This document shows positions 1 through 48,176 of a stretch of DNA of 64,000 nucleotides, piece after piece. The stretch comes from Cyanidioschyzon merolae (lineage: Eukaryota). The notes beneath the pieces were generated by a model, which saw only the letters and a program-made list of their open reading frames with translations, did not search any database and was not told the DNA's origin. Made by a program: the position numbers and the translations under genes. The stretch is taken from assembly GCA_000091205.1 (NCBI GenBank), contig AP006502.2. One strand, written 5' to 3'. Each line of letters starts with the position of its first letter. Position 1 is the first letter of the stretch.

Positions 1-2352
1 AAGTGTTTTTCGCAGTATAGAACGGAAGCGTTCAAAGAGCGTTCAAGAAATAAAAATAAAAAACTAAAAAAAGAAAAGTTATGAAAAAGCAAGTCCACGA
101 TCCTGGAGGCGCATTGGCGCCGGCTGCCAGAAAAAAAAAACAAAAAAACCGTACGGAATCCAGAAGAAAAGGAAGAGAGGAAGGACCGAAAGTGGGAGGC
201 CCTACGTTGAAGGCGGCAAGAAAGACAACTGTACGACGAGATGGTGGTGAAAGCCATTCATCTTGGACATATCAAGGATCCCTACAGGGGAAAGCTGCGA
301 GACGCTATCAAAAAGCGTGTCGACTCGTACTCCAAGAGTATTGTCAATGCGTCGTCGGGACTGATGTATTTGGCGAGGAAGATGTACGAAGACGTGAAGC
401 ACATGGAAACGGTCGAGATTCCAGACAAGTTTTTCGACAAGACGTTTATTCGTCACCTGATGCTTGGCACAGAGAAAGCGCGGATGGAAAATGAGCGGTT
501 GCATGTTCTCCACGAAAAACATCCCTTTTACAGCTTCAAGGGTACTCGAAACAAGGGTGACTGGGGTGTTTACGACTGCGGGTCGATGAAGTACATCACG
601 AATCTGAAGAACCATTTGACAACGAACCTCGAACGTTGCATGATACGCGCCGTATTTGCACTGTTCCCTGGCATCTCTCGCAGGAGGATATGGGCGATTG
701 TCAACGGCATCACGAATGATCGCAGGCATGAAGGTGAGGTCGAATTCGTCGACAGGAAGGCGTCAAAAGAGAGCACGAATGAAGCTTCTGTAATCCGTGC
801 GGTTATACAAGAGCACCGTGCAATCTTGGGGTTGGCAAATCCAACAGACAACATATCAGAGCTGAACAAAAGATAAGGAAAGATACTATCGCCTCGTCCG
901 GCGGTATATCGTGCTTCTGGACCGAGAGCTCGAACGCAAGGCAGAGATGAAGCTGAGCGAAGAGACAAATGACGAGTGGGAGAGATGGAAGGCGTTCCTA
1001 ATGGGTAAGCGCCTCAGCGTCGTTCCAATGTGCAACATCAAGTCACATTTTGCGAAAGTCGACCCCAACGCACATTACAGCAAAATGAAGGAGATCTGTC
1101 CGGAGGTCGATGTAAAGAAGACAGAGTTCACCGGTGAAAACCGGGAGACGTGCTGGAAGAATATCTTCGATTTCAAACGCCTCAAAGTCAGCAAACAAAA
1201 GGTATTTACTGGGTTGATCGAAACCGATGGAGTAGCCTTGTGTGTACACTATCGGCGGTTGAAGAGAGATCGTCCAGTTCCGCCCTCGGCTTCGCCCGTG
1301 ACGAAGGATGGAGATGAGAAGAAGGCGGATCCTGTGATGCAGGAGGTGTAGGATAACGCCTTTATGGTTGGCGCGGCGAAGCATGAAGAAAACAAGAAGG
1401 CGGGCCCTGAGACACAGAAAGTGCAGGATAACGATCTTGTCGTTGGCGCGGGCCCCGGGAATACGAATATCATAATTATCGCAGCACCGAAGCGTGCGGA
1501 AGATGGTACTGACAGCAACTTGCGTCAGAAAGACATGCGTCTTTTGAGGTTCTCGAGAGCGATATACTATCGAGAATCGGGTATAACGAATGCAAGGAAG
1601 AAAATTGGGACGTGGAATGCAGGAATGAAGGATCGCCTGGAAGCTTTGAGCGAGGTGACGAGCCGCGGAGCGGACTTTACAGCTTTTCGGAAATTCGTGG
1701 AAGATCGTGTTGCCCATTGAGATGCGCTGTGGGAGGAGTATACCAAGCCCGGTGGGCTCGTCTGCGATTGAATCTATACAGTGGGAGGCAGCGGGCGTTT
1801 GCCAATTTTTTCAATCAGCTGAGCGCCCTCAAGGAGGATGAAAATCAGAGGCTCGTAGTAGCGTACGGAGCAGGGCGATGGAAGACCCAAAAAGGGACTA
1901 CGCCAGCTCCAACGACAAGAACGTACAAGGAGTGTGCACGGCGTTTCGTTACGATACCAGTAGATGAGTTCCGAACATCGTATACACACCAAGAGTTGGG
2001 GTGTACACTTCAGAGAGTCGAGATGGAAAAGTGTCAGCGGAGCCCTGAGGAAATAGCAAAGTACGCACCGCTAACAGAAGAGCGAATGGAAAGAAGAGCG
2101 AAAGTTCGTGGACTACTTGCATTAGTGAGTACAACTCCCAACGGCATGAAACGCATGGAGTTTGTGAACCGTGACTTAAATGCCGCTATCAGTATAAGGA
2201 AATGTGCGGTGCTGGAGAACTGAACTCCAGAGTTGACACGAGAGAAAACTTTATTGGACAACCTCTCAAAGTGGAACTATATGAGAAACAGTTGGAAGCA
2301 GTAGTGGGTGGCCGGTCCAAGAAAACTGAGAGGCGTCTGCACGTCAGTTCAA
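1..2352 (+). mobile_element. TnpB/Fanzor-like transposon-associated element, copy 1. The left side runs off the window edge. The right end is inferred where homology to copy 2 stops, just after ...GTCTGCACGTCAGT.
   Basis: Homologous along its whole length to 24311..26553 at nucleotide and protein level. About 240 bp upstream of the first ATG are conserved in both copies. Confidence 0.6.
241..2223 (+). pseudogene. Fanzor/TnpB-like RuvC nuclease gene, decayed. Segments: ORF1 241..876, middle region 911..1351, RuvC region 1364..1720 and 1612..2223. Disrupted by an in-frame TGA and a 1-nt deletion at ~1715-1745, and by a premature stop plus frameshift at ~2219 before the conserved C-terminal tail.
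   Basis: Paralogous to the intact 309-aa ORF of copy 2. The RuvC-I-like motif here reads [16 protein letters not shown] where copy 2 has VVDADPGN. The C-terminal NRDLNAAISIRK matches the D-x-NAA-x-NI RuvC-III signature of TnpB/OrfB_IS605. A Cys/His cluster sits between them. A putative 36-nt GT..AG intron lies at 1346..1381. Confidence 0.6.
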
Positions 2353-2441
2353 GACGCTATGTCTAGGGCGCGGTTGCCGCCACTACTGTACACCGCTGGC
2401 GACAACGTTTTTCTTTCGAAAGGCGTTTGTTGTTGGCGGTG

Positions 2442-3773
2442 ATGGCGACTCTCACCCGAGCGTCTGTCCGCGTGCCCGTAGCGCAACAGGCGGAAGTTCT
2501 CAGAGCCAGCGAAAAAGATAAGCAAGTACGGAATGAGCTCGCACGGGCGCTGCAAAATATATGGCAAGGCGGCAGTATAGTCCTGGGCCGTTTCCTTCAC
2601 ATCCAGCGATTAAACCAACGCTGGTCGCGTGCACAGCGGGCCCCAAGTCGTGTGCCGTTGTCAACCGGGCAAGCGCAAGGAACGTCACGTTCTAGCACAC
2701 TGGGGAGTCTCCAGCAGCCGTGGGAGCCGCTTGGAGCACCACCGACAGCGTTTCGCTTTCTGAGTGACCTCGTCTTCTACTGGAGCACAGTGGGAATCGG
2801 TCGCCAAACACCCGGAGAAGAGTTTTGTGACCTTTTCGAGTGCACCATAGCTACCGGTGATCGCATCCAAGTGGCAACCCTATCTTGGAAACAGCGACTA
2901 TTGGAAACATTGCTCTATGCCACCATCGACTCTTTTCAGCTGCTTCTGTACTGGCTCCGGGTAGCACTGCGTCGAGTCGCCCGGTTCTTGGAGCGTGACT
3001 GGTACTCGCAATGTCTCTTGAGTCGCGAGAGACGCTGCCGAGTAGCCAGTACCTTACGTTTCGTAGACACTTGCTGCGCACGTCTGCAATTGCTACAAAG
3101 CTCCGATCGCCATGCACTGGCACTCACGATACAGTGGCTCATGCGTGTGCATCTTGCACTGTTCTATTTGTATGGGCGCTACTATGACCCAGCGAAGAGG
3201 CTTGCTGGTGTGCGTCTCGTGCATATTGGGCGGTCAAGGGCGTATTCACCTCGATATGATGCTCTAGGTCTTTTGCTCATCGTGCAGCTCGTCCTCGAAC
3301 CCATTGATGTGTTGATGCAGCGTCCAGCATGGAAGCGAAAGCTCCGCGTGCTTTTCAAATGGGCACTTGAGCTGTTTCGCAAAATGTATGCCAGTGTATC
3401 CACCTCGAAGCGAATCGCAGGTGATGGCGTCTCGCAGGCTCGGCCTCAGATGGTGACCGCTGTGCACACCACAGATCGATTCTCGGGCGAAGAAACCGGG
3501 CTTCCTGGCTCCAGAACGACAGATCAACAGCGGTCATGGTCTGTGGTATCGCCCAAATTCGAGCCTGTACCCACTGCAAGGCGAGCGCGAAACGAGTCGC
3601 GACACCGCTGCGTGCTCTGCTTGGATCAGTGCCAGGACCCCACATGTACTGCCTGTGGACACGTCTTCTGTTGGATCTGCATCCTGGACTGGGTGCGTCA
3701 GCAAAACTCTTGTCCAGTTTGTCGTCGAGAGGCACAGTTGAATGACTTACGTTGCCTCTACAGCCTCGGATGA
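2442..3773 (+). CDS. PEX10: Peroxisome biogenesis factor 10 (RING-type E3 peroxin). The ORF is open from 2427 (TTG); the first ATG is at 2442.
   Basis: The C-terminal C3HC4 RING CVLCLDQCQDPTCTACGHVFCWICILDWVRQQNSCPVCR closely resembles the PEX10 RING [25 protein letters not shown]...CPLCR. The N-terminal part is consistent with a Pex2/Pex12-type domain. Confidence 0.75.
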   Translation: MATLTRASVRVPVAQQAEVLRASEKDKQVRNELARALQNIWQGGSIVLGRFLHIQRLNQRWSRAQRAPSRVPLSTGQAQGTSRSSTLGSLQQPWEPLGAPPTAFRFLSDLVFYWSTVGIGRQTPGEEFCDLFECTIATGDRIQVATLSWKQRLLETLLYATIDSFQLLLYWLRVALRRVARFLERDWYSQCLLSRERRCRVASTLRFVDTCCARLQLLQSSDRHALALTIQWLMRVHLALFYLYGRYYDPAKRLAGVRLVHIGRSRAYSPRYDALGLLLIVQLVLEPIDVLMQRPAWKRKLRVLFKWALELFRKMYASVSTSKRIAGDGVSQARPQMVTAVHTTDRFSGEETGLPGSRTTDQQRSWSVVSPKFEPVPTARRARNESRHRCVLCLDQCQDPTCTACGHVFCWICILDWVRQQNSCPVCRREAQLNDLRCLYSLG

Positions 3774-13071: not shown

Positions 13072-13807
13072 CGTTTGTTGCTGGCGCCTGCGATCCACCT
13101 GCATCAGCACATCGCGACCGCCGAACTGTAGCAATTATTTGCGATATTCTATATATAAATGGTTGCGCTACGAGCGATGGCGATTGCGCGCGATTTTTTG
13201 CGACACATGTGTATATTAAGGACAGATTCATGGGTGATGCTTACGGTATTTCACCTCAACGGGGTTCCACTCGCAGATGCGTGGAATCAAGAGTGGTTTC
13301 GTGCTTAACAGCAACCACGTTCGAAGCGCGTTCATTAGAAGAAATAGAAAACCCAAGGGAAAGAATCGTCATCGAAGCGGCGGATCGAAGAGGGTCGGTG
13401 TCGTCGGGGTTTGACAAGGAAACGAAATAATCCTCTCCTCGCCGACCATCGAGCAAGGGAGAGCTACTGACGAAGAAAAAGAATAGTGGGGATTGGCGAG
13501 CAAAACTTGTTCGCCGTAGAGGACGATGATGAGACTAGAGTGGCACAGAGGGCAAGTGTTTGAGAAATCCCTGGACTGATGCATTGTACCAGAGGCATTA
13601 AAGTCAAGGAGTTCATGAACAGTTACTTGAACGCCGAACGCAATATTACACGATGTAAGATGCTGAAGACGAGAACCGTGGAGCTGACGCGAGCATTTTT
13701 GGGGCGCAACCTCTCAGGCTCGAAGTGTACAAAGAGAAACTGAAAACGATTGCAGGACGCTGGTCGAAAAAGGCTGGCAGCCGTCTGCGGGCGGATATCA
13801 ATTTACC

Positions 13808-16348
13808 CTATGGTCGCGATATGTCTTCGCTCCGCGAAGCAAACAGGCACGGATCAACTGGCGGGTTACTGGAAAGCGCGTCCGCGAACGGATACCAGTT
13901 GCGCATGGCCGCTCTGGTTTCCTCAGAGACGTTCTCGGTTACCGCCACCGCCCAGGCCTCTTCAAAGTCGGACAGAAAAGGATGGACGCCTGCTTCGCAG
14001 AGTCGCAACACCCCGCGCTCTAAATATGCCTTATCGCCCGTTGCGGTGGCGAGCGCGGTGACGCTGGCCAAGTCAGTAGCCCCGCGTCGTTCAAAGAACT
14101 CGTGGCAAACTTTCTCAACATTGTTTCCGTGCAAAGTTTTCACGACCGCATCAAGTTCTGCTTGCGCAAGCTTCGCTGCAGACGACGACCCCCTGATGGA
14201 ACGTGACAGACGTACAAGCAGACGAATCGCCATCGGCGACAGCGTCTCGACCGTAGTGCTGCCCCGCAAAGCCGCAACGACCGCTCGGGCAGCGAGCGCA
14301 TAACGAGCACTCTCCACAGCGACTTGGAAAATGATATCCAAGAGCTCTTCTGATAGCTCGGAAGGCTGCGTGGCCTTGAGTATTAACGGAAGCGTCAGCT
14401 TTTCCGCCTCCTCCAGAGGTGCCGCGCGGCTGATGAGCATTGTTCCGTCGGGGTCGGTCTCCATCCAACCGGGAGTGCGCGGACGGCGAGATGCTCGTTT
14501 CGCTGTGGAGGTCTCATTGGTGGACGCGCTTGTGGTAATGGCACCCGCATGAACGCGGAGCCGTTCCAGACGTGCTGTAATGTCCGCGCGATTGCGATGC
14601 AACGCAAGGTAGCAACGTGCAGCGCCGCGCACTGCGCGTTGGTAGTACTCATGCTGATGAAGACGATCTTCCCAGCGAATGAGATCCACATAGGCTGCGA
14701 TCGTGGATTTCCGTAGACAGTACGCATGAAAGTCGTACTCATCTTCGCGAAAGTCTGTGAAATGCCGCAGAACTGCCGTGTAGTATTTCAGCGCACGATC
14801 GATGCGGCCTTGTGCAAGCGCTGCATCCGCGTAAGCTAGTTCGAACCACATGACCTGCAAATTGTACAGCGCTTGAACAGGAGGTGCCTCTCCATCATGT
14901 GTGAACATCAAAATCAGCTCCATGGCACGATCAGGTATGCCGGCTAGCAATGCGTACTCAGCTGCGAGTGAGTTCAGTGCGCGATCACGCACGTCCAGGG
15001 ATCGTGCTCGCTCTGCTGCCTCGTAAGCGCGGCGATATGCTCCAACAGACCGCCAGATCCGCGCTATCGCGGCTCTGCATTCAGGCGAGTCGGTGAACTG
15101 TTCTAGAAAGGCGATAGCGCGTTCAGGGTCGCGCGATACCCGCATACAGTGTTCTGCGGCGAAAATCGCGGTCGCCTCATTATGAACCGCAGCTGGGACG
15201 TTACCGATCAGTTCGAGAAATACCTCGTCGATGACGCGCTTCTTCGCATCATCCTTGTAAAAATTTTCTAGGATGCGAGCGAAACTAGGAACCTGGGCGA
15301 TTTCCAGAAAATGATGCATGAGCTCTTTGACTCTTTTTCGGAATTCATCGCAGGATCCCTCCAGGTGGCGAAGCGCTCCTAGCGCGCAACCTAGCACAGG
15401 CGCCTCGTCAGGGGTGAAGCACTCTTCGCCGGCGCTGTCGCAAAGTTCCCTCGGGACTGCATCATACAGAGCCACAACATCCCGGCCCGTCGTATCGTTT
15501 CGCACAATACCCTCGAGGTACTCCGCATTACTCGGATTTCGGCGCAAGAGTTGCCAGTAACACCTGTGGGCTCGCTCATGATCCCCGATCCGCTCCGCTA
15601 TACGCGCAGCGGTGTGGAGCGCGAACGTACGATCGAGGATTTTTCCCTCCTGAATGCAAGTCTCGGCGTACTTGAGGGCTTCCTCACGCATATCCGCCTC
15701 TTCCAGCAATCTCAGGCGGTACTCGTACGCAAGCGAGGCTTCGGAGATGTTTGATCCCTCTGTGCCGAGCTGGTATTTGGCTGCGATGCGTTCCCATGCA
15801 TCCAGAACCCGTAACGCTTCCTCGTGACGGCCCAGCAGGTGGTTTGCAACGGCAAGTCCCAGCCAGTTTAGACGCAGCGTCGGCCGCTGCTGAAGCATTT
15901 GCTCGCGAGTTCGGAGGAGCCCCTCAAAGTCCCGAATGTGCGCCTGAAGCGGAGATAGTTCGCGCAGCAGTTGCGCATTATTAGGGTCCAACCGGAGCGC
16001 CTGCTGGTACGCCTTGGCTGCCTCCTTGTACTCTCGGTCGTGTCTGTGAAGAAGTCCTAAAATATGCCACGCAACTTGGGACCGAATATCTTGCCGGAGG
16101 CCGCGCCTGGCGAGCTCGTAGGCCTCGTCGCGTTGATCCAACGCTCGCAAGATGAGACCTTTCATCGCGAGTGTCTCTCCGTGGTCGGGCACTGCACGCA
16201 AGATCTGGTCAGCGATCTTGTTTGCCTTTTTGTACTGCTTGATTTCATAAAGTCGAAACATTTGTTTGAACAGCGACTGCTCCTTTGTGGGCAGCGACGG
16301 CTTCCGCCCCTGCGCTGACCCAGCACCCGCGGCAGACACCGGAGCCAT
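13808..16348 (-). CDS. NAA15: N-alpha-acetyltransferase 15, NatA auxiliary subunit (TPR protein).
   Basis: 846-aa uninterrupted ORF with ATG start. The N-terminus KEQSLFKQMFRLYEIKQYKKANKIADQIL...GETLAMKGLILRALDQRDEAYELARRGLRQDIRSQVAWHILGLL is highly similar to NAA15/Nat1. Confidence 0.85.
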   Translation of the reverse strand: MAPVSAAGAGSAQGRKPSLPTKEQSLFKQMFRLYEIKQYKKANKIADQILRAVPDHGETLAMKGLILRALDQRDEAYELARRGLRQDIRSQVAWHILGLLHRHDREYKEAAKAYQQALRLDPNNAQLLRELSPLQAHIRDFEGLLRTREQMLQQRPTLRLNWLGLAVANHLLGRHEEALRVLDAWERIAAKYQLGTEGSNISEASLAYEYRLRLLEEADMREEALKYAETCIQEGKILDRTFALHTAARIAERIGDHERAHRCYWQLLRRNPSNAEYLEGIVRNDTTGRDVVALYDAVPRELCDSAGEECFTPDEAPVLGCALGALRHLEGSCDEFRKRVKELMHHFLEIAQVPSFARILENFYKDDAKKRVIDEVFLELIGNVPAAVHNEATAIFAAEHCMRVSRDPERAIAFLEQFTDSPECRAAIARIWRSVGAYRRAYEAAERARSLDVRDRALNSLAAEYALLAGIPDRAMELILMFTHDGEAPPVQALYNLQVMWFELAYADAALAQGRIDRALKYYTAVLRHFTDFREDEYDFHAYCLRKSTIAAYVDLIRWEDRLHQHEYYQRAVRGAARCYLALHRNRADITARLERLRVHAGAITTSASTNETSTAKRASRRPRTPGWMETDPDGTMLISRAAPLEEAEKLTLPLILKATQPSELSEELLDIIFQVAVESARYALAARAVVAALRGSTTVETLSPMAIRLLVRLSRSIRGSSSAAKLAQAELDAVVKTLHGNNVEKVCHEFFERRGATDLASVTALATATGDKAYLERGVLRLCEAGVHPFLSDFEEAWAVAVTENVSEETRAAMRNWYPFADALSSNPPVDPCLFASRSEDISRP

Positions 16349-22146: not shown

Positions 22147-23769
22147 TTAAGACGGAGAACGCTCCCAGCTCTGGCTGGGTATTCGGTCCGAACGCAGATA
22201 GAAGACGCTCGTCACGTACCGCTCGTGATACCTTCGCGTGAGGACGTACTTGTGCACATGGCGCACATTTGCGGATACCCCGCTGGGAACTATGTACAAA
22301 TGGTTCAGGGTCACTGTAACAGGTCTTGGAGGGAACAAATCAACCTCGCCCCGCTCTCGTCGCAACTGTTCTTCTATGAATTCGTTTGGAGTCATCTCAA
22401 TTGGCAAGCGAGGAGCCGTTTCCTCGCCAAGCAGGACAGGCAGCGGCGGTGGCTCACGATGAAAGCCCGACTCGATACCTGGAATTGCGTTATCATAGCT
22501 GCCAACAGGGCTCTGTTCCCGCCGGAAGACCTCGCTCGCGCGCTTCGTTCCAGGCAAGAAATCATCCTGTACCAGAAACTCGCCAAAGAAAGGTTCCACC
22601 CGAATGAAGTTGTTCACATTACCGTGGGCATCCCGAGCGACCATTTGCTCGGGCGCATACCGCCACTCGCCGTCTACAACATACTTGTACTGATAGTCAC
22701 CAGGTTCTAGATTAAGGAGAATGTAAAAGGCGTTCCCGCTCCGATGCAGTGGATGACGCCGCTTCCACCCGTCAAAGGAGCCCGCGACTTCCACACCCGC
22801 AACGGCGCCGTGGTGCCAGTTGAATGCCACTGGAACCAGGTTCCGCTGCGGGACTTCTAGGAGCTCCATTTCAGCCAGCTTGGTTTCGGTATCCTCGAGC
22901 TGTGGTGTGTGCACGACGCCGTGGTCCACAGAGCGCCTTGGTGGCACCTCGGCGCCTCCGTGCTCTCTCGAATCACTGCCTAACGCAGGAGGAAGTTGCA
23001 TGGCGCTCGGCAGAGGAGGCGGCCCCGAGGCAGACGCTTTCGCTTGGAGGGCGTTTTCACTCATTCCAGAGGTTTCTGGCACAGCCCAGCCCGGAGCGGC
23101 TCTTGGTACCCCACCACTAAAGTAGGACTCCATGCCCAGGCTTGCGGGACTGTGCGGGCTGAGCCTCGGGCTTATTGCCGCAGGCGCGGCGCCTACGGAG
23201 GCCGCAGCAGCGAGTGCCGCAGCACTCCGCTCCGACAGCGCTGCTGAGCCCCGTGTGAGGACTCGCGAGGCCGCGGCGGGTGCCCCTGGACCACCCTCTC
23301 GAGAGAACGAGTGTCCCATAACGCCAGCAACGGCAACTCCAACGTTGCCAAAACCGTTGTTGCTGCGGGACGCACCCGTGCCTCCAAGGAACAACGTTGT
23401 CAGTCGCGCGCGATTGGCGTCTTGGTAGGAACGTTCAAAGGAGTCGGATGCCGGCAGGTGATTCCCTTTTCGATGACAAAACGTTTCCATGAACCATGGA
23501 TCCCAGTTTGCGGAATGGGTATTCGTAATCGAAAAAAAAGGTTCATCATGCGGCAACAACCTGCATGTTCCATGAACCAGATATCCTCTCGGATACACTG
23601 GTCGTTTCGTGCGCTCTATCGTGTGCCAGTTGTCTGCCTGGCTGCACTCGCAATAGCAGTCATACCGCTGGAGCAGATGCAGCACGGAGACAGAACCGCT
23701 TTTCCATACCACTGAGGGCTTCGACTCGATGCTTGGTTCATCCGAGACCGGGTCGGAGTACATAATCAT
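22147..23769 (-). CDS. AMPK/SNF1 kinase beta subunit (CBM48 glycogen-binding domain plus ASC domain). The ORF is open from 23784 (TTG); the first ATG is at 23769.
   Basis: VPVAFNWHHGAVAGVEVAGSFDGWKRRHPLHRSGNAFYILLNLEPGDYQYKYVVDGEWRYAPEQ matches the AMPK-beta GBD. C-terminal ...TLNHLYIVPSGVSANVRHVHKYVLTRRYHERYVTSVFY matches the ASC domain. A long Ala/Pro-rich linker separates them. Confidence 0.8.
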   Translation of the reverse strand: MIMYSDPVSDEPSIESKPSVVWKSGSVSVLHLLQRYDCYCECSQADNWHTIERTKRPVYPRGYLVHGTCRLLPHDEPFFSITNTHSANWDPWFMETFCHRKGNHLPASDSFERSYQDANRARLTTLFLGGTGASRSNNGFGNVGVAVAGVMGHSFSREGGPGAPAAASRVLTRGSAALSERSAAALAAAASVGAAPAAISPRLSPHSPASLGMESYFSGGVPRAAPGWAVPETSGMSENALQAKASASGPPPLPSAMQLPPALGSDSREHGGAEVPPRRSVDHGVVHTPQLEDTETKLAEMELLEVPQRNLVPVAFNWHHGAVAGVEVAGSFDGWKRRHPLHRSGNAFYILLNLEPGDYQYKYVVDGEWRYAPEQMVARDAHGNVNNFIRVEPFFGEFLVQDDFLPGTKRASEVFRREQSPVGSYDNAIPGIESGFHREPPPLPVLLGEETAPRLPIEMTPNEFIEEQLRRERGEVDLFPPRPVTVTLNHLYIVPSGVSANVRHVHKYVLTRRYHERYVTSVFYLRSDRIPSQSWERSPS

Positions 23770-24310
23770 TCTGGGGGTCAGCAAGCTGCTCAGAGAGGCT
23801 TACTTTCTGCGACTGCGCGAATCGACATGCAAGGAGACCACTGCGACCAGGGCGATGCCCAGACCCAGCATACCCAATTCGTGTCCCAGAATAGATTGCG
23901 TTGCGGACGGCTGCCCTGATCTCACGAAAGGACCCACCACTGGGAGGCGCATGAAGCACGAGTCTGGCGGACTTGTCCGGCTCGCGGGACCTTCCGCCTA
24001 AAGGATGAATTTTCGACAATATGGAAACCGCTCTCCCCTTTTAACGTGTTTCGCAGAGAAGGAAAGAAATTTTTATCCAGTTGCAAGGTTAGAGGTTAGT
24101 CTCTGTCCATGTTTGTGTATAGCGCGGTTGATACGCGCACCTTGAGATCCAGCAGGCGTGAGATCCGACGTGCATCTCGCCCTTGAAGGGAAACGCGATC
24201 CTAATCAATAGCACGTTGGTATGACGTACAGGTTGTATTTGCATTGCATGTATCTCATTTTATAGTCTTTCAATTCAATGCTTTTTCAACCATCACGTTG
24301 GTATATTCAT

Positions 24311-26553
24311 GTGATTTCTCGCGGTTTCTAACTGAAGCGTTCAAAGTGCTCTCGTGCTAAAAAATAAAAAAAGAAATTCATGGAAATAGAAGTGGAGGAC
24401 CCTTGAGGCCTTATGTCGTCGGCTGCCGGAAAAAACGGAAAAGAGTCCCGAGCCACGTGGAGCATGGGAAGATGTAGAAGCAAAAGAATGAGGTCCGACG
24501 CCAAAGGCTGCGAGAAAGACGAAATTACGACGAGATGTCGGTGAAAGCCTGTCTCCCTAAACATATCAAGGATCCGTACAAGGAAAAGTTGCGAGAGGCC
24601 ATCAGAAACCGTGTCGCGTCGTACTTGACCAATGCTCGTCACGCATCTTTAGGATTGATGTATATGGCGAAGGAGATGTATCGCGACGTGATGGAAATCA
24701 AAATATTCGAGCTTCCGGACGAATGTTCCGACAAGACCTTTATTCGTCATCTGATGCTTGGCACAGAGGAAACGTCGAGAAGAAACGAGCGAGTGCATGC
24801 CCTCCACGAAAAATATCCCTTCTACATCTTCCACGGTACTCGATACAGGATAAGAGTGATATTTACGAAATCGGGGCGAAGAAATACCTCACGAACCTGA
24901 AGAACCATTTGACAATGAACCTCGAACGTTTCATGATACGTGCCGTGCTTGCATTCTACCCGGGCATGTCTCGGCAATGAATATGAGCGATTATCAATGG
25001 CATAACGAACAATCGCAAGCATGAACAGGAGATCGAATTCGTCGACAAGAAGACACCATGCAGGAAAAGGTGTAAAACTTCTGTAATCCGTGCGGCGATT
25101 CAAGAGCGCCGTCCGGTACTGGGGCTGCTCAACCCATCAGAAAAAGTAGCAGATATGGGAAAAACATTATTCTCTCATCCTGCGCTATTTCGTGTTTTTG
25201 GACCGAGAACTCGAACGCAAGGCCGAGATGAAGCTCCGTGTGGGAAAAAACGAAGAGTCGGAGAAACGGAAGGCTGCGCTTCTGAGGAAGCGCTCCAACG
25301 CCGTTGCGCAATGCGGCGTCAAGTCACACATTTTGACAATCGACTCCAGAGCCCTTTTCCGCATCACGAAGGAGATAAGTCCGGAGTTCGATATAAGCAG
25401 GGACGAATTTATGGATGAAAACCGAGTAACTCGTTGGAAGAATATCTTCGATTTCAAACTCCTCAGAACGAGCGCGCAAAAAGTATTCACGGGAACGATC
25501 GAAAGCGATGGGGTATCCACGTGTGTTCACTACGGGCACCTGAAAGTGTATGATCCTTTTCCATCTTCCATATGACCCTCGGCGAAGCATGAAGAGAAGA
25601 AGGAGGCAGATCTTGCGAGGCAGAAAGTGCAGAAGAACGACTTTGTGGTTGACGCGGACCCCGGAAACACGAACATCATAACCATCGCAGTACCCAAGCG
25701 TGCGGAAGATGACATTCACGGTAGCTTACGTCGGAAAAACATGCGTCTTTTGAGGTTCTCGACAGCAAGATACTATCGAGAATCCGGTATGATGAATGCG
25801 AGGAAGAAAATCGAGACATGGAATGCAGGAGTGAAGGATCACCTGGAAGCTATGCGCAAGGTGACGAGCTGCGGAGCAGACTTTCGAGCTTTTCGGGAGT
25901 TCATGGAAACTCGTGCTGCCCATAACGAGAAGCTTTCGAACGAATATGCCAGGCCCCGGTGGGCTCGTCTGCGAATGAACCTGCTCTGTGGGAAGCAGCG
26001 TGCATTCGCCAAATTCTTGAATCAGTTGAGCCCCCTCAAAGAAAACAAGATCCAAAGGCTCGTAAAGGCATATAGAGCACGACGCGAGGCGTCAGGAGAA
26101 GGCAGCACACCAGCGCCATCGACGAGAACGTACAAGGAATGCGCACACCGTTTTGTCACAATACCGATAGACGAGTTCCGAGCGTCATACGTCCACCATG
26201 ATCTGGGGTGCACAATCCAGAGAGTCGAGATGGAAAGGTGCCAGCGAATTCGTGAGGATATCAAAAACTTCGGAGCGCTGACGGAACAACAAATGGAAAG
26301 GAGGGCACAAGTTCGGGGATTTCTTGCAGTGGTGAGTTCCATCTCGGGCAAAAAACGCATGGAGTTCGTGCACCAAAACATAAACGCCGCTTTCAATATC
26401 AGGAGATGTGCAGTGATGGAGAAGAGATCTCCGCATCTGGCGCGAGCCAACTTTATGGGGCAGCCTCTCAGGGTTAAAGTGTACGAGGAGAAGTTGAAGC
26501 CAGTAACAGGCGGCCGGTCCAAAAAGCCTGGGAGGCGTCTCCACGTCAGTGTA
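24311..26553 (+). mobile_element. TnpB/Fanzor-like transposon-associated element, copy 2. Both ends are inferred from where homology to copy 1 stops.
   Basis: Collinear with 1..2352. The conserved upstream block ...gaagcgttcaaag... begins near 24311. The conserved 3' block ...GGCGGCCGGTCCAAAAAGCCTGGGAGGCGTCTCCACGTCAGT ends at ~26553. Confidence 0.65.
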
Positions 26554-26556
26554 TAG
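24535..26556 (+). pseudogene. Fanzor/TnpB-like nuclease gene, copy 2. The N-terminal region is disrupted by a 1-nt deletion at ~24890 and two in-frame TGA codons at ~24972-24980. The downstream half is intact.
   Basis: ORF1 homolog is split across frames (24535..24900 and 24723..24980). The middle region 25192..25575 and the RuvC region 25627..26556 are open. Putative introns at 25116..25149 and 25546..25587. Confidence 0.6.
25627..26556 (+). CDS. Longest intact ORF of the Fanzor/TnpB-like gene: the RuvC nuclease half (309 aa; open in frame from ~25588).
   Basis: RuvC-I-like FVVDADPGNTNIITIAV, a Cys/His cluster (KECAHRF...HHDLGCTIQRVEMERCQR), and a C-terminal MEFVHQNINAAFNIRR motif. This last motif has N where copy 1 has the Asp of R-D-L-NAA. 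C-terminal tail GGRSKKPGRRLHVSV. Confidence 0.65.
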   Translation: MQKNDFVVDADPGNTNIITIAVPKRAEDDIHGSLRRKNMRLLRFSTARYYRESGMMNARKKIETWNAGVKDHLEAMRKVTSCGADFRAFREFMETRAAHNEKLSNEYARPRWARLRMNLLCGKQRAFAKFLNQLSPLKENKIQRLVKAYRARREASGEGSTPAPSTRTYKECAHRFVTIPIDEFRASYVHHDLGCTIQRVEMERCQRIREDIKNFGALTEQQMERRAQVRGFLAVVSSISGKKRMEFVHQNINAAFNIRRCAVMEKRSPHLARANFMGQPLRVKVYEEKLKPVTGGRSKKPGRRLHVSV

Positions 26557-27383
26557 ACATGTACGCTATCGACATGATGTATGTACGCATGTATGCCCGA
26601 TATGCCGGCGGCTTACGACTCATGCAGCGTAGTGTGCGTTGCAGGGACAGAAAAAGCGACGATGGATGAGATCTGACCAAAAGAGAGATATAATCCTTTG
26701 GACGAAAAGCGTCTTGCACGGCGGTGTGCCTAAGACATCGAATCCACTCCAGCAAGGGCTATCACGAGCAGGGATAAATACGGCTTTGCTTTGCGCGTGT
26801 CGCATCTATCGCGCTGACGCTCGTGTGGTCATGACGGTCACTGCTTGCATGCGATGTCGGCTTCTGACTCGATATGTTTACGGACGGGAGCGTGGTATCG
26901 TGCGTAAACGGCACGAGAACCCCGCGCAGCTGATATAGACGGCTGCAGCGCTGGCGAGATATGCGCACGCATGCCGTCGATGCGTGTCACCGGTCGCATT
27001 CACCGGCGATCGACGACCTACACTCTCAGTGGCGTTGCGCCAGTGCGCCGTCGGTGCAAAGCACGGCCGACGCACGTCTGCGCAGGGTATGCGCTGTCCG
27101 CATGCACACGCAAGCGAAGTGATACGCTTCGGGAGACCCCAGCTGCCCAGGATGCATCCCGTGGAATGTCCAGGAATACGCAGCAAATCGGAACGAATGC
27201 CTCCATTTGACATGGAACGACAAACGTTTGTTTGCCTTTTGGGAGACAAGAAACGCCCAGCATCCTCATCGCAAAGATGCAGTCAGGAAACTGTTTTCTG
27301 GGCGGAAACTGGCTCTGCGTACCAAGGCTGCACATGGGAACACACTGCGTTGAGTTCCGCAACAAGATGCTGGCTGGTGGCGG

Positions 27384-37558: not shown

Positions 37559-38534
37559 GCGTCTAGCGAGTATCCCTTGTACTCAGATTTTCTGGATGTT
37601 GTCAGCGATGAGAGACGCTTTTCTTATTTAGATAGTTCTACGTTCCGCAAGGCACGGATCTGTGGTCTCGTCGGAACTGGGGAAAACGCTGTGTTCAAGC
37701 AGATAGATCGTGTGTCGGTCTTCTGTTAGCCTCTCGTTGGGCATGTGATCGAATCCTGATCGCGCGCGCGCGCGTGCTTAACAGGTAGGCCCAAACCTGT
37801 GGAGATGCGTTGACCGGTGACCGACACAGGCTTGTGTTCAGCTGCTGGACGATGTGGCAGCATGGGCGCTCTTTCGACTGGGAAAAGAGGGATGCGTGTC
37901 GGAGGAACGCAGTCTCGTGTAGATACACCCGTTGCTTCTGGAGGCTGCAGTATAGTCCAGCGCCGCGTGCTGGTCGTTTTCGTGGACGGGGCTGTACGGG
38001 GCTCGGAAATTGTCCACCAGTCGCTGTGTTTGTGCGATCGTGCGCATTTGCTAGGGAAGGAAGCGGATCATCGGGGGCACGGGCCGTGTCGATCGCGAGT
38101 CGATTTCAGGACATGCGAACACCCGCCCAGAACTTTCATGAATAAACCAGTCTTCATGTGCGAGCTCGGAGCGTCTAGCAGACACCCGGCCTCTATTCAG
38201 ATCGGGGCACGAGCCGTGTCGAAGTGATGCAGGGCTGCAGTCTCGTTCCGCTGACCCGCACCACGACCCGCGAGCAGCATCCATCACGGGAGCGCTTCTC
38301 AAGCCGACGCCTCCAGAGGTACGGCAGGCACTCGTCGCTCAATAGAACGTACGAAACGACCGATCCGTCTGAGAAGAAGTATGGGGAATGGAACTTGGGT
38401 GCATCGCAATGGGGGCGTTTTCGGAATGCCAGCAGCCATTCCTGCGATCTGCGAGACGCGAGCGCAATGATCTCGCAGCGCGCAGCGCATTGGGCGAGCG
38501 CTGCAGTTCGTGAATCCGAGTCGCTCGAAGCGTC

Positions 38535-45225: not shown

Positions 45226-46209
45226 TGATGGTGCGCGACGTTCTCCGAATCGACGTCTCGGTAGGCGCACCTCCAGATCCGGCAGGCAGAGGACACGATG
45301 AGCATGCCGATTTCAAAGGGAAATACGCGACCCTGAACAATTGTCGATTTGCCGGGAACCAGCAGACATCGCGTTCGAAACATACACTGTTGCTGGTGCC
45401 GCGTTCCATGCAAGACGACGGCATGGCATGACAGCATCAAGCGTGCATCTCGAACGGACGCGGTGTATTTGCGTTAGAGGCATGGCATAGACTTCGACCT
45501 CGATGGTGTTCCACGCCCAGGTACGTGTCGTCAAATGCATTTTCGTGGTTTATATCAAACGCGTTCGTAGTGCGTTCATTTGAAGAAATCAATATAATCC
45601 AACGGATCTGGTAAGGACATTGGAAGTCGAGGATCCTCGAGGGCCGGGGGCCTCAGGCCTCAGGCACCGGAAAAGCAGAACGAAAAATCCTCTCCTCGCC
45701 GACCAACGAGCGAAGAAAAGCAAGCGATGAAGGAGAAGAAGATGGGTGGTAATGGTCCAAAAAAGGTGTCCACCGGACTGGGCGATGATGAGACTGTCGT
45801 GGCACAGCGGGCACAAGTTCTAGCGATCCTCGCCATGACGAGTTCAGCCAGAGGCAATAAACACAGGAAGGTCGTGAGCCGCGACTTCAATGCCGTCATC
45901 AATATAAGATGATATGTAGTGCTGAGGACGAAAACTGCGGAGCTGACGCGTGCGAGCTTTGTGGGCCAGCCTTCTCGGCTCGAAGTGTGCCTGGATACAC
46001 TGAAGCCGATAGCATCGGGTCGGTCAGAAAAGTCTGGGAGGCATGTGCACATGGGCAGATATATTTACCTCCCATGGCCAGAGCGCGTTTCCCGTTATAA
46101 TGGCCGTGTGTATGAAGGACTGTTTTCTTAGGGCTCGAATGGATACCGAATTCGTAGGGCCCTATCGTTCGCATGCGTGTCTGAACTAGCCCTCAACACC
46201 TGTATCAGC

Positions 46210-47410: not shown

Positions 47411-48176
47411 CCTCGCCCTCGATCGCCGACCTCAGCGAGCAAGCATGTGCGTCCGGATGCAGCCGTGTCCACTCGCCGCGCTGCGACACGCTTCGATGCC
47501 AAACCGGGTACTGTGCCCCATTAGAGCCCAATCAGCAACGCACCCAAAATCTCGCGGATGCTGCGCCCTGTAGGCTGGAGTCGGCCACAATGCAACGCAC
47601 CAACCTGGATGCGCTCGAGCATACGTGCACCCTTGGTGGCGTGCATCGGAAACGTCCACTGCGTATTTAGACAAACCTCAAATTCTGAGCATCGAGACAG
47701 GCCGAGAACTGCCAAAACATCGTAACTTGCAATGAAAGAAACTGTAATCTCTCGGCTGGCTGCCACCGCCAATCATCGCGCATTCCGGGATAATCTCATA
47801 GGCTGGTTCCCCGATGCTTCTCAAAGAATCCGAGCCAGGTACCAAGTGCGGCTGGCGCCAGATGCTCCATGGCCGGGGCGTCTTCATCGCACAGCGTGTA
47901 TGCAGCGACCGCACCGGCGCTATAGGCGCCATTGCTGTCGCTCTCGGCAGGCACTAGGCACACACGATAGGACGTATGAAACGACCAGAATATCCGAGAT
48001 GAAATATAGGTCATGTAACATGGAGGTAGGGGTTTGACAGATACCTCACCTCGCACTGAAAAAAAAAGCCAAAAAGAAAAGAAAAACGTGCATAATCGGA
48101 GAACGCTGGCCTATGGAAACGTTTCGTCCATGAAAAAACATCATTTGCCAGCGGACGCAGACGCCACAGACGTCCG

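Follow-up and report, generated by a model that had tools for sequence, protein, structure and literature searches.

Two CMe-1A copies and two short relatives

The window, that is, the whole stretch of 64,000 nucleotides from Cyanidioschyzon merolae that was analyzed (contig AP006502.2 of assembly GCA_000091205.1), carries two long copies of CMe-1A, the published Fanzor1 element of this organism (Bao and Jurka, 2013, Mob DNA 4:12; PMC3627910), along with two short relatives. The CMe-1A consensus has a length of 3169 bp, and the CMe-1 protein comprises 734 aa (supplement of PMC3627910). A previous sequence-only reading had described the two long elements as Fanzor-like; this is borne out, since both are copies of the published Fanzor1 family, and no evidence against their identification as CMe-1A was found. 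The elements are arranged as follows.

1-2429, + strand: CMe-1A copy 1; left part cut by the window start at consensus position 834, 3′ end complete
81-2366, + strand: degenerate Fanzor1 reading frame of copy 1, with in-frame stops and frameshifts; RuvC-I aspartate changed to glycine (GAGPGNTN)
13290-13810, + strand: copy 4, the second short relative, of the same sub-type as copy 3
23471-26550, + strand: CMe-1A copy 2; 5′ end complete, last 77 nt missing; a pseudogene with the RuvC-III aspartate changed to asparagine (HQNINAAFNI)
45258-46068, + strand: copy 3, a short, internally deleted relative that retains the 5′ region along with the final ~270 nt of the ORF but differs in its 3′ end

A blastn comparison with the published consensus matched positions 834-2196 to window 1-1376 (82.4% identity) and positions 2117-3169 to window 1372-2425 (90.1%) for copy 1, and positions 1-3092 to window 23471-26550 (80.7% over 3092 nt) for copy 2, which also carries the 5′ 635-bp module of CMe-1A. 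Identities of about 80% to the consensus and the lack of terminal inverted repeats agree with the published description (PMC3627910). Downstream of copy 2 the sequence is unique and shared only by the orthologous metagenome loci L001, L002, L004, and L005; the missing 77-nt tail was found neither there nor elsewhere in the window.

The reading frame of copy 1 is broken into ORF pieces in three frames (241-876, 911-1351, 1364-1720, 1612-2223, and 2202-2366), and its protein start, MKKQVHDPGG, resembles the MEKEVEDPGG of published CMe-1. The ORF of copy 2 is 74% identical to the published protein. The family consensus and most homologues possess a split RuvC triad D...E...D (DPG / DEFRTS / RDxNAAxNI); because copy 1 has lost the aspartate of motif I (D to G) and copy 2 that of motif III (D to N), both are catalytically dead. 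A long ORF is present in only 1 of the 80 metagenome loci; the genome has ~150 copies of the element in all. Membership in Fanzor1 is also indicated by an hhalign comparison of the family profile with PUl-1, a Fanzor1 protein of Pythium (E value 7e-6, probability 84%, over the RuvC-II motif). Between RuvC II and III, the consensus contains HHELGC...EKC (two His, two Cys) instead of a canonical CCCC arrangement; PUl-1 has CSCC...CTNSKC. In sequence searches of Pfam, NCBIfam, and the PDB, neither the ORF pieces nor the homologues nor a 15-sequence profile gave a significant TnpB or Fanzor match, the best hit being a Cas12f1-like TNB domain with an E value of 0.42. An AlphaFold2 model built from a 67-sequence alignment was poor (mean pLDDT 50, pTM 0.28).

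Coding nature of the 42-nt block

Attention had been drawn to the segment 2290-2375 by the sequence-only reading, which took a block of 42 nt, better conserved between copies 1 and 2 than the coding sequence before it, for a candidate omega-RNA scaffold abutting the right end of the element. Both 42-mers are indeed present in the window, with 36/42 identical bases (85.7%), and the homology of the two copies does stop abruptly after CACGTCAGT, identity being 20-45% further on. The break had been placed at ~2352 and ~26553; its actual position is 2348 in copy 1 and 26550 in copy 2.

2307-2348, + strand: the block in copy 1, encoding GGRSKKTERRLHVS, the basic C-terminal tail of the protein (from its translation and the C termini of homologues)
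2349-2366, + strand: last five codons (SRRYV) and the stop codon TAG (2364-2366) of ORF 2202-2366
26509-26550, + strand: the block in copy 2, encoding GGRSKKPGRRLHVS; the frame then enters the flank and stops at 26554-26556

Homologous proteins terminate with GGRSKKxGRRLHVS followed by five residues, and the tail encoded by the block is GGRSKK(T/P)(E/G)RRLHVS; the family members end in WRLLG, SRRFI, RRCFV, or similar sequences. In the published CMe-1A consensus the stop codon occupies positions 3108-3110.

The contrast with upstream coding sequence of only ~60-65% identity had been overstated, as the 100 alignment columns adjoining the block are 69% identical, the two copies share 74% identity overall (gaps excluded), and several of their 100-nt blocks reach 81-83%. 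One tenth (10%) of all 42-column windows in the copy pair are at least as similar as the block, which therefore is not an outlier and does not exceed chance. Differences within it fall on codon positions 1, 2, and 3 in 1/14, 1/14, and 4/14 cases; the corresponding values for the 294 preceding codons are 21.8%, 15.3%, and 35.4%. What little extra identity there is thus lies at amino-acid-changing and not at synonymous positions, which points to the protein or to chance and not to an overlapping RNA constraint. Among 42 non-redundant family copies, mean pairwise identity was 0.778 in the block versus 0.831 in 958 nt of upstream coding sequence, and third-position identity 0.749 versus 0.746. Extra constraint at the 3′ end is consequently not seen: synonymous sites are conserved as they are elsewhere, and family-wide the block is less conserved than the coding sequence upstream of it. 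By codon-position counts, in the pair as in the family, it behaves as the tail of a protein, the very outcome that the sequence-only reading had set against its own proposal. We conclude with considerable confidence that window 2290-2375 spans the end of the reading frame of a dead CMe-1A copy and the beginning of its 3′ non-coding tail.

The right end of the element

The right end was located from 80 metagenome loci, which supplied 46 non-redundant ends for an alignment. Past CAGT, all ends except those of the copy 2 orthologues run through ...TGGAGACGTTTTGTCTAGGGCG...CCACTACTGTACACC...GAAAGGCG(TTTG) and then diverge. The published consensus and ~45 independent copies extend 77-81 nt past CACGTCAGT, and the tail of copy 1 reaches 2425-2429, so that the right end cannot be kept at CACGTCAGT. 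Homology appeared to end there because copy 2 breaks off at consensus position 3092, 77 nt short of the full length. The consensus terminus ...CACTACTGTACACCGCTGGCGGCAGCGTTTTTCTTTTGAAAGGCG is found in copy 1 (2349-2425; its last 66 nt are 94% identical) and is absent from copy 2.

2367-2429, + strand: non-coding 3′-terminal segment (59 nt in the published consensus, plus TTTG), with a GGCG...CGCC hairpin at 2367-2381 and the conserved island CGCCACTACTGTACAC

Consensus position 3169 corresponds to window position 2425, and the real right end of copy 1 probably lies at 2427-2429. Bases 2426-2429 (TTTG) are conserved across the copies (T 94%, T 91%, T 56%, G 72%), and the alignment of many ends suggests that the element extends 2-4 nt (TT or TTTG) past the published end. 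Per-position identity is 0.78-0.95 at consensus positions 3122-3137 and drops to ~0.25 past the element; the four near-constant bases TTTG are followed by ~7 G/T-rich bases.

The clean, single-base break in homology might instead be taken to mean that CACGTCAGT is the genuine right end of a subfamily of which copy 2 is a complete member, and 10 nt that match the left end in inverted orientation (GACAAAACGT / ACGTTTTGTC) begin 5 nt further on. However, the only elements that end there are copy 2 and its same-site orthologues (L001, L002, L004, and L005), compared with 0 of ~45 independent copies. This makes the alternative highly improbable, and we rejected a genuine right end at CACGTCAGT on the ground that just one genomic site displays it.

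Among six copies for which both ends are available, no convincing target-site duplications were found; in these copies, left flanks are T-rich, the motif beside the left end being a candidate TAM, and right flanks begin with TTTG. Right ends were often observed 10-100 nt upstream of a host ORF on the same strand.

Predicted RNA structure of the terminal ~135 nt

The terminal ~135 nt of the element (2295-2429) are predicted to fold stably when read as RNA in the sense direction. The consensus fold has an energy of -55.8 kcal/mol with a z-score of -3.27 (-3.3 to -3.7 across analyses), and that of copy 1 an energy of -52.4 with a z-score of -2.23. The fold is sense-specific, with -57 kcal/mol for the sense and -39 kcal/mol for the antisense strand of the consensus. 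Over 43 sequences, the mean z-score against mononucleotide shuffles was -1.41 for the terminal 135 nt, 0.04, -0.49, and -0.47 for coding controls, and -0.68 for the antisense strand, comparisons that overstate significance because the copies are related by descent. In the minimum-free-energy folds, for copy 1 as for the consensus, 2298-2340 pairs with 2350-2389.

2299-2305, + strand: CAGTAGT, 5′ arm of the predicted long-range stem, inside the coding sequence (minimum-free-energy folds of the consensus and copy 1)
2382-2388, + strand: ACTACTG, 3′ arm of the predicted long-range stem (minimum-free-energy folds)
2404-2427, + strand: terminal hairpin, AACGTTTTTC, loop TTTC, GAAAGGCGTT, with two T-G wobble pairs (fold of copy 1)

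In the long-range stem (helix 1), 87.6% of the alignment cells are paired, with no significant covariation. The terminal hairpin occurs in two family variants of -15.9 kcal/mol (z-score -3.7) and -9.9 kcal/mol (z-score -2.6); hybrids with swapped arms reach only -8.0 and -5.8, and the antisense strands -9.8 and -4.5. As judged from these predicted folds, the hairpin is kept by two co-varying variants at the subfamily level. A covariation analysis across further copies, which the sequence-only reading had advised, yielded no column-wise signal above shuffled or slid controls, either for the long hairpin or for a set of local hairpins that fits equally well. RNAalifold retained only 3 invariant pairs on the 46-sequence alignment. 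Mean conservation of the 3′ non-coding segment (0.649) is below that of synonymous sites (0.746). No matching family was found in Rfam: at the gathering threshold tRNA alone was reported, and the permissive mode applied to 2150-2500 gave chance-level matches.

These folds bear on the question of whether the 42-nt block is constrained as RNA after all, by forming, with the sequence past the stop codon, the main stem of a guide-RNA scaffold that extends into the ORF end. The pairing of 2298-2340 with 2350-2389 and the sense-specificity of the fold would agree with this, as would the retention of the last ~270 nt of the ORF by the deletion derivatives copies 3 and 4; furthermore, according to PMC10432273, the guide RNAs of TnpB and of some Fanzors overlap the ORF end. 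Against it stand third positions that are as diverged as elsewhere in the pair (4/14 versus 35%) and in the family (0.749 versus 0.746), a block that is conserved less than the upstream coding sequence, the absent covariation signal, and the equal fit of the local hairpins. We regard an RNA-level constraint on the block as plausible, while leaning against it.

Somewhat doubtful, in our view, is the possibility that the terminal hairpin and the 3′ non-coding segment are DNA signals for mobilization by a transposase acting in trans, in a single-strand process like that of IS200/IS605 or Helitron2 elements, and not an RNA scaffold. The hairpin is situated 2-4 nt from a sharp element boundary, the family lacks terminal inverted repeats as well as a transposase gene (PMC3627910), its shared core also starts with a hairpin and bears different 5′ modules, and other Fanzor1 families ride on Helitron2 elements with hairpins at both ends (PMC3627910). 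However, the stability of the CMe-1A hairpin relies on T-G wobble pairs, and these are weaker in DNA; the antisense strand folds worse; the Helitron ends 5′-TC/CTRR-3′ and an A/T target are not seen (the element begins with CGATG... and ends with ...GGCGTTTG), and no transposase is known. A DNA signal would also be compatible with a guide-RNA role, as the IS200/IS605 right end serves both.

The stem followed by TTTG at the very end, in a segment directly after the stop codon, could likewise suggest the 3′ UTR of a Fanzor mRNA, with the stem and the T's as a signal for termination or 3′-end formation. We consider this unlikely: a UTR signal would not set the boundary of a repeat so exactly, such stems are not normal for eukaryotic mRNA 3′ ends, and where a same-strand host ORF follows within 10-100 nt, as it often does at right ends, a terminator could be harmful or irrelevant.

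A putative guide RNA at the corrected right end

A guide RNA encoded at the 3′ end, as the sequence-only reading had it, is still the leading functional hypothesis for Fanzor1, but the right end and the guides had been misplaced. In the version that we propose, the terminal ~135 nt of active elements (~55 nt of coding tail and the non-coding end) would be transcribed in the sense direction. The transcript would fold as a long imperfect hairpin with the 42-nt block as its 5′ arm and the region past the stop codon as its 3′ arm, followed in order by a short hairpin and the terminal 10-11-bp hairpin. Together, the long, short, and terminal hairpins would constitute the omega RNA scaffold of the Fanzor1 nuclease, and the 15-20 nt past ~2429 would supply the guide; the terminal hairpin may additionally be a DNA signal that marks the right end in mobilization. 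Since the block is the predicted 5′ arm of the sense-specific hairpin 2298-2389, it could still belong to this scaffold. We suggest tentatively, from the predicted folds, that the CMe-1A terminal ~135 nt (2295-2429) might encode an undescribed Fanzor1 guide RNA with the last ~55 nt of the ORF in its main stem, a 10-11-bp hairpin, and a guide from the host flank. Both window copies are pseudogenes that lack one catalytic residue each, which counts against such a role, as do the column-wise covariation at control level, the low mean conservation of the 3′ non-coding segment, the restricted variability of the bases just past the element, and the rarity of long ORFs among the metagenome loci. In the open literature that we searched, no description of a guide RNA for the Cyanidioschyzon Fanzor was found; the publication on CMe-1A predates guide-RNA biology and says nothing on RNA (PMC3627910).

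The two guides proposed previously are both wrong, because the element continues past CACGTCAGT and copy 2 is truncated. The first (2349-2368) is internal to the element and consists of the SRRYV codons plus TAG and two bases of the non-coding tail; the second belongs to the unique flank that adjoins the truncation of copy 2.

2430-2445, + strand: putative guide site if the guide-RNA model holds, placed by analogy with SpuFz1; no other match in the window
26551-26570, + strand: the second guide of the sequence-only reading, unique host flank beside the truncation point

Searches of the window with the two proposed guides and the corrected flank returned the sequences themselves only. Searches for guide targets must begin from 2427-2429 and not from 2348, and copy 2 is unusable for them.

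SpuFz1 of Spizellomyces punctatus (Saito et al., 2023; PMC10432273) resembles CMe-1A in that its Fanzor1 ORF is followed by a conserved non-coding segment of 60-80 nt up to the right end, with a predicted stem-loop just ahead of the boundary, and that short, ORF-less derivatives exist in the genome. In contrast to CMe-1A, which has no inverted repeats and nearly all of whose copies in this analysis are decayed, SpuFz1 elements possess 30-nt inverted repeats and encode intact, ~82% identical proteins. Expression, protein binding, and cleavage have been demonstrated for SpuFz1 (PMC10432273), whereas the guide RNA of CMe-1A is a prediction; its best predicted fold reaches ~55 nt into the ORF, unlike that of SpuFz1.

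The logic of the model is shared with the IS200/IS605 TnpB system of ISDra2, where the scaffold extends over the right end and the 3′-terminal part of the nuclease gene, and the guide is positioned just outside. At the IS200/IS605 right end, a subterminal hairpin also serves transposition. CMe-1A differs from these elements by the lack of TnpA, the absence of a detectable match to TnpB models in Pfam and NCBIfam, its eukaryotic host, and its much larger protein (734 aa).

Non-autonomous Helitron2 elements carry Fanzor1 genes in Chlamydomonas (CRe-1, CRe-2, and CRe-3; PMC3627910). CMe-1A likewise bears a Fanzor1 gene without encoding a transposase, has a hairpin close to either terminus, and combines an invariant 3′ end with 5′ parts that vary. 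Neither the termini diagnostic of Helitrons nor their asymmetric inverted repeat at 20-30 bp from the 3′ end could be discerned in CMe-1A, whose sole inverted match is found 62-71 nt from the end. Membership in Helitron or Helitron2 was rejected: the ends are CGATGAC... and ...GAAAGGCGTTTG, the left flank is T-rich and the right flank TTTG, and only the near-end hairpin fits.

As first written, the finding carried little weight: the coding tail that it came upon belongs to a transposon family on record since 2013, whose end it misplaced. The element is already known, and the useful outcome is the corrected right end. The model, for its part, yields boundaries for a candidate scaffold, a terminal hairpin, and a predicted RNA 3′ end 15-20 nt past the element, and, coming from an alga that thrives in heat and acid, such a Fanzor could be of interest for genome editing. 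Right ends lie just upstream of same-strand start codons in 15 of 32 cases, compared with a background of 20.5%; because this is unusually often, the system might home in on the 5′ regions of genes or persist there, which, if true, would take place in a very compact genome of a moderately thermophilic, acidophilic red alga. At copy 1, the ATG of a host Pex10-like ORF is located at 2442, and Pex2/Pex12 and RING domains are present in this downstream ORF.

The elements belong to the Fanzor1 family CMe-1A

CMe-1A is a Fanzor1 family described from the red alga Cyanidioschyzon merolae, where it has about 150 copies that are each ~80% identical to a consensus of ~3 kb (Bao & Jurka, 2013; PMC3627910). 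It lacks terminal inverted repeats, its target duplications were left undetermined by the authors, and its 5' 635 bp are common to another repeat, TE-N2_CMe; the supplement provides a consensus (3169 bp) and a protein (734 aa) (PMC3627910). When we compared this consensus with the window by blastn, positions 1-3092 matched 23471-26550 (80.7%) and positions 834-3169 matched 1-2425 (82-90%). The CMe-1 protein is 74% identical to the ORF of copy 2, and the family profile aligns to the Pythium Fanzor1 PUl-1 over the AYG.W...IP.DE.RTS region (hhalign E 7e-6). The elements are therefore Fanzor elements, as the sequence-only reading had proposed, and are copies of the already known CMe-1A. Sequence searches of Pfam, NCBIfam and the PDB gave no significant match, and an AlphaFold model was of too poor quality for use.

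Window start to ~2.4 kb, + strand: copy 1, homologous to copy 2
~23.5-26.55 kb, + strand: copy 2, homologous to copy 1

The 42-nt block is a protein-coding tail

The 42-mers that had been read as a better-conserved candidate omega-RNA scaffold and right end are located at 2307-2348 (copy 1) and 26509-26550 (copy 2) and agree at 36 of 42 positions. This similarity is unexceptional within the pair: 10% of all its 42-column windows equal or exceed it, and several 100-nt stretches reach 81-83% against an overall identity of 74% (gaps excluded). The block codes for protein: it forms the end of a 309-codon ORF in copy 2 (...GGRSKKPGRRLHVSV), and the region translates as ...GGRSKKTERRLHVSSRRYV in copy 1, where the stop codon occupies 2364-2366. 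Third codon positions hold four of the six block differences, and the difference rates at positions 1/2/3 are 7%, 7% and 29%, as against 22%, 15% and 35% in the preceding 294 codons; judged by these rates, synonymous sites in the block enjoy no special protection. Both copies are pseudogenes, each with several stops and frameshifts; the RuvC-I aspartate is gone in copy 1 and the RuvC-III aspartate in copy 2. A protein search yielded 211 relatives, all unnamed and from JGI and ENA metagenomes, most of which, as does copy 1, carry five further residues past ...HVS (for example WRLLG, SRRFI or RRCFV).

Nor is the extra 3'-end constraint found family-wide: the block is less conserved than the upstream coding sequence, with equal identity at position 3. 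The codon-position pattern upstream points clearly to protein-level selection while the family spread. Two islands in the non-coding tail, GGCG and CGCCACTACTGTACAC (the latter 0.78-0.95), are highly conserved, and outside the element identity drops to ~0.25.

Table. Conservation across the family (mean pairwise identity over 42 copies)
Segment; codon positions 1/2/3; all positions
Upstream coding sequence, 958 nt; 0.86/0.89/0.75; 0.831
Block, 42 nt; 0.79/0.80/0.75; 0.778
Last codons (consensus 3093-3110); 0.67/0.69/0.70; 0.686
Non-coding tail, 59 nt; not applicable; 0.649

Upstream of the block, the ORF carries a 75-78-nt tandem repeat (window 1302-1376 and 1377-1451; loci L024, L045 and L059 of the related metagenome set; consensus 2117-2196), present in one to five copies depending on the element, which encodes an acidic KHEEKKEADPATQEVQ.NDFVV unit and directly precedes the RuvC-I motif.

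The right end lies beyond the block, and copy 2 is truncated

Homology between the two copies stops at 2348/26550, right behind CACGTCAGT, and identity further on is 20-45%; the reported break thus exists, at coordinates 3-4 nt lower than had been given. It is not the right end. The CMe-1A consensus runs 77 nt past CACGTCAGT (TGGAGACGTTTTGTCTAGGGCGCGTTTGCCGCCACTACTGTACACCGCTGGCGGCAGCGTTTTTCTTTTGAAAGGCG), and this tail is present in copy 1 at 2349-2425. We mapped the right end from 80 related metagenome-contig loci by aligning 46 non-redundant 3' ends, all of which pass through the tail and diverge only after ...GAAAGGCG, except for the copy 2 orthologues (L001, L002, L004, L005). The tail of copy 2 was searched for nearby and not found, and the downstream sequence is unique; copy 2 is therefore 3'-truncated, and homology appeared to end abruptly because it was compared with a complete copy. 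Two observations that the sequence-only reading had itself named as speaking against it were made: the element extends past CACGTCAGT, and the behaviour of the block is that of a protein tail. The guides proposed in that reading are consequently no guides, since 2349-2368 comprises the final five codons with their stop codon plus two non-coding bases, and 26551-26570 is unique flank; neither has further matches within the window.

The four bases past the published end are near-constant (T 94%, T 91%, T 56%, G 72%), so that copy 1 probably ends at ~2427-2429. After T/T/T/G, a non-random G/T-rich stretch extends to about +11 (window 2426-2436, with the corresponding flanks of the loci). Either the published consensus falls short of the element end by 2-4 nt (or more), or these bases reflect a target-site preference. 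Full-length copies have a T-rich left flank (...TTTTC).

Metagenome contig L052 (1-827) is 99.9% identical to window 22705-23531, which spans the left flank of copy 2 and its beginning, and then enters a Fanzor C-terminal region just 64% identical to copy 2. The assembly probably produced a chimera at the repeat here, and such contigs should be used with caution.

Predicted structure and possible role of the 3' end

The terminal 131 nt of the consensus are predicted to fold at -55.8 kcal/mol (z -3.27; equalled by 1 of 200 shuffles) into a long imperfect hairpin in which the coding tail, block included, supplies the 5' arm and the post-stop region the 3' arm, followed by a short hairpin and a terminal hairpin. 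The same fold is predicted for copy 1 (-52.4 kcal/mol, z -2.23). The mean z of the terminal 135 nt in 43 sequences is -1.41 (antisense -0.68; three coding control segments 0.04, -0.49 and -0.47), although these sequences are interrelated and nominal P values overstate the sense-strand stability; structure is strongest in the consensus (-57 kcal/mol sense versus -39 antisense). Two subfamily variants keep the predicted terminal hairpin, namely CGTCGTTCGA-CTT-TCGAACGGCG (-15.9 kcal/mol, z -3.7) and AACGTTTTTC-TTTT-GAAAGGCGTT (-9.9 kcal/mol, z -2.6), while arm-swapped hybrids are weak (-8.0, -5.8); the antisense hairpins are weaker because of G-U pairs. The predicted stability of the end is thus sense-biased. 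RNAalifold kept only three invariant pairs, paired-cell fraction and covariation score of two explicit structure models equalled shuffled controls, and Rfam gave no match for the 3' end. Such a lack of covariation would follow if dead copies had acquired most of their differences after inserting, but it leaves the structure a predicted one.

Fanzor1 scaffolds consist of one or more stem-loops preceding the guide (PMC11423790). By analogy, active CMe-1A copies would use their terminal ~80-135 nt as guide-RNA scaffold, with a guide that in copy 1 would begin at ~2430. The general premise of the earlier proposal is sound, a 3'-end guide RNA being the leading hypothesis for Fanzor elements. With both ORFs broken, nothing in the window can be active; a long ORF occurs in only 1 of 80 loci. 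The terminal hairpin may, additionally or instead, be a DNA signal for mobilisation in trans: the core element likewise begins with a hairpin (GCGCTC-GGT-GAGCGC or GCGCG-GTCGATA-CGCGC) and bears different 5' modules across subfamilies. The open literature searched gave no description of a CMe-1A guide RNA, and the relocated guide-RNA hypothesis would add one more member to a kind already known; the practical value lies in a corrected boundary and an explicit, testable model.

Host-gene neighbourhood and further repeats

Right ends lie unusually often directly upstream of a same-strand host ORF (at least 100 aa, starting within 120 nt), as in 15 of 32 non-redundant copies (L003-L081) versus 20.5% of random positions (binomial P ~7e-4). 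In copy 1 (window 2425-2445) this is a Pex10-like RING-finger ORF with its ATG at 2442, 13-17 nt past the element end.

What the subfamilies have in common begins only at consensus ~640, and their 5' modules are unrelated; that of copy 2 is 635 bp and TE-N2_CMe-like. The left end GACAAAACGT (consensus 5-14) forms a 10-nt exact inverted match with the stop-codon region ACGTTTTGTC (consensus 3098-3107), equalled in only 4 of 2000 shuffles, in a family described without terminal inverted repeats; the copy 1 site (2354-2363) has diverged. The two short relatives, copies 3 and 4, retain the promoter-proximal 5' region and the final ~270 nt of the ORF. Their common, different 3' end (...GATAT..TTTACC.CC.ATGG.C) suggests that they are short non-autonomous members of a second, related family.

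23475-23484: left-end part of the inverted match
24115-24150: core start with 5'-module junction, ~300 nt upstream of the ATG; also in L007, L013, L019, L020, L055 and others
45258-46068 and 13290-13810: copies 3 and 4, two relatives of ~600 bp with internal deletions; the C-terminal part shows ~42% amino-acid identity
12984-13072, - strand: intron-containing tRNA-Pro(CGG) gene, 89 nt, ~250 nt from copy 4; sole Rfam/ARAGORN match in the window
38323-38454 and 47923-48030, both - strand: isolated fragments matching consensus 31-189 (75-81% identity), probably TE-N2_CMe-type copies without the Fanzor part
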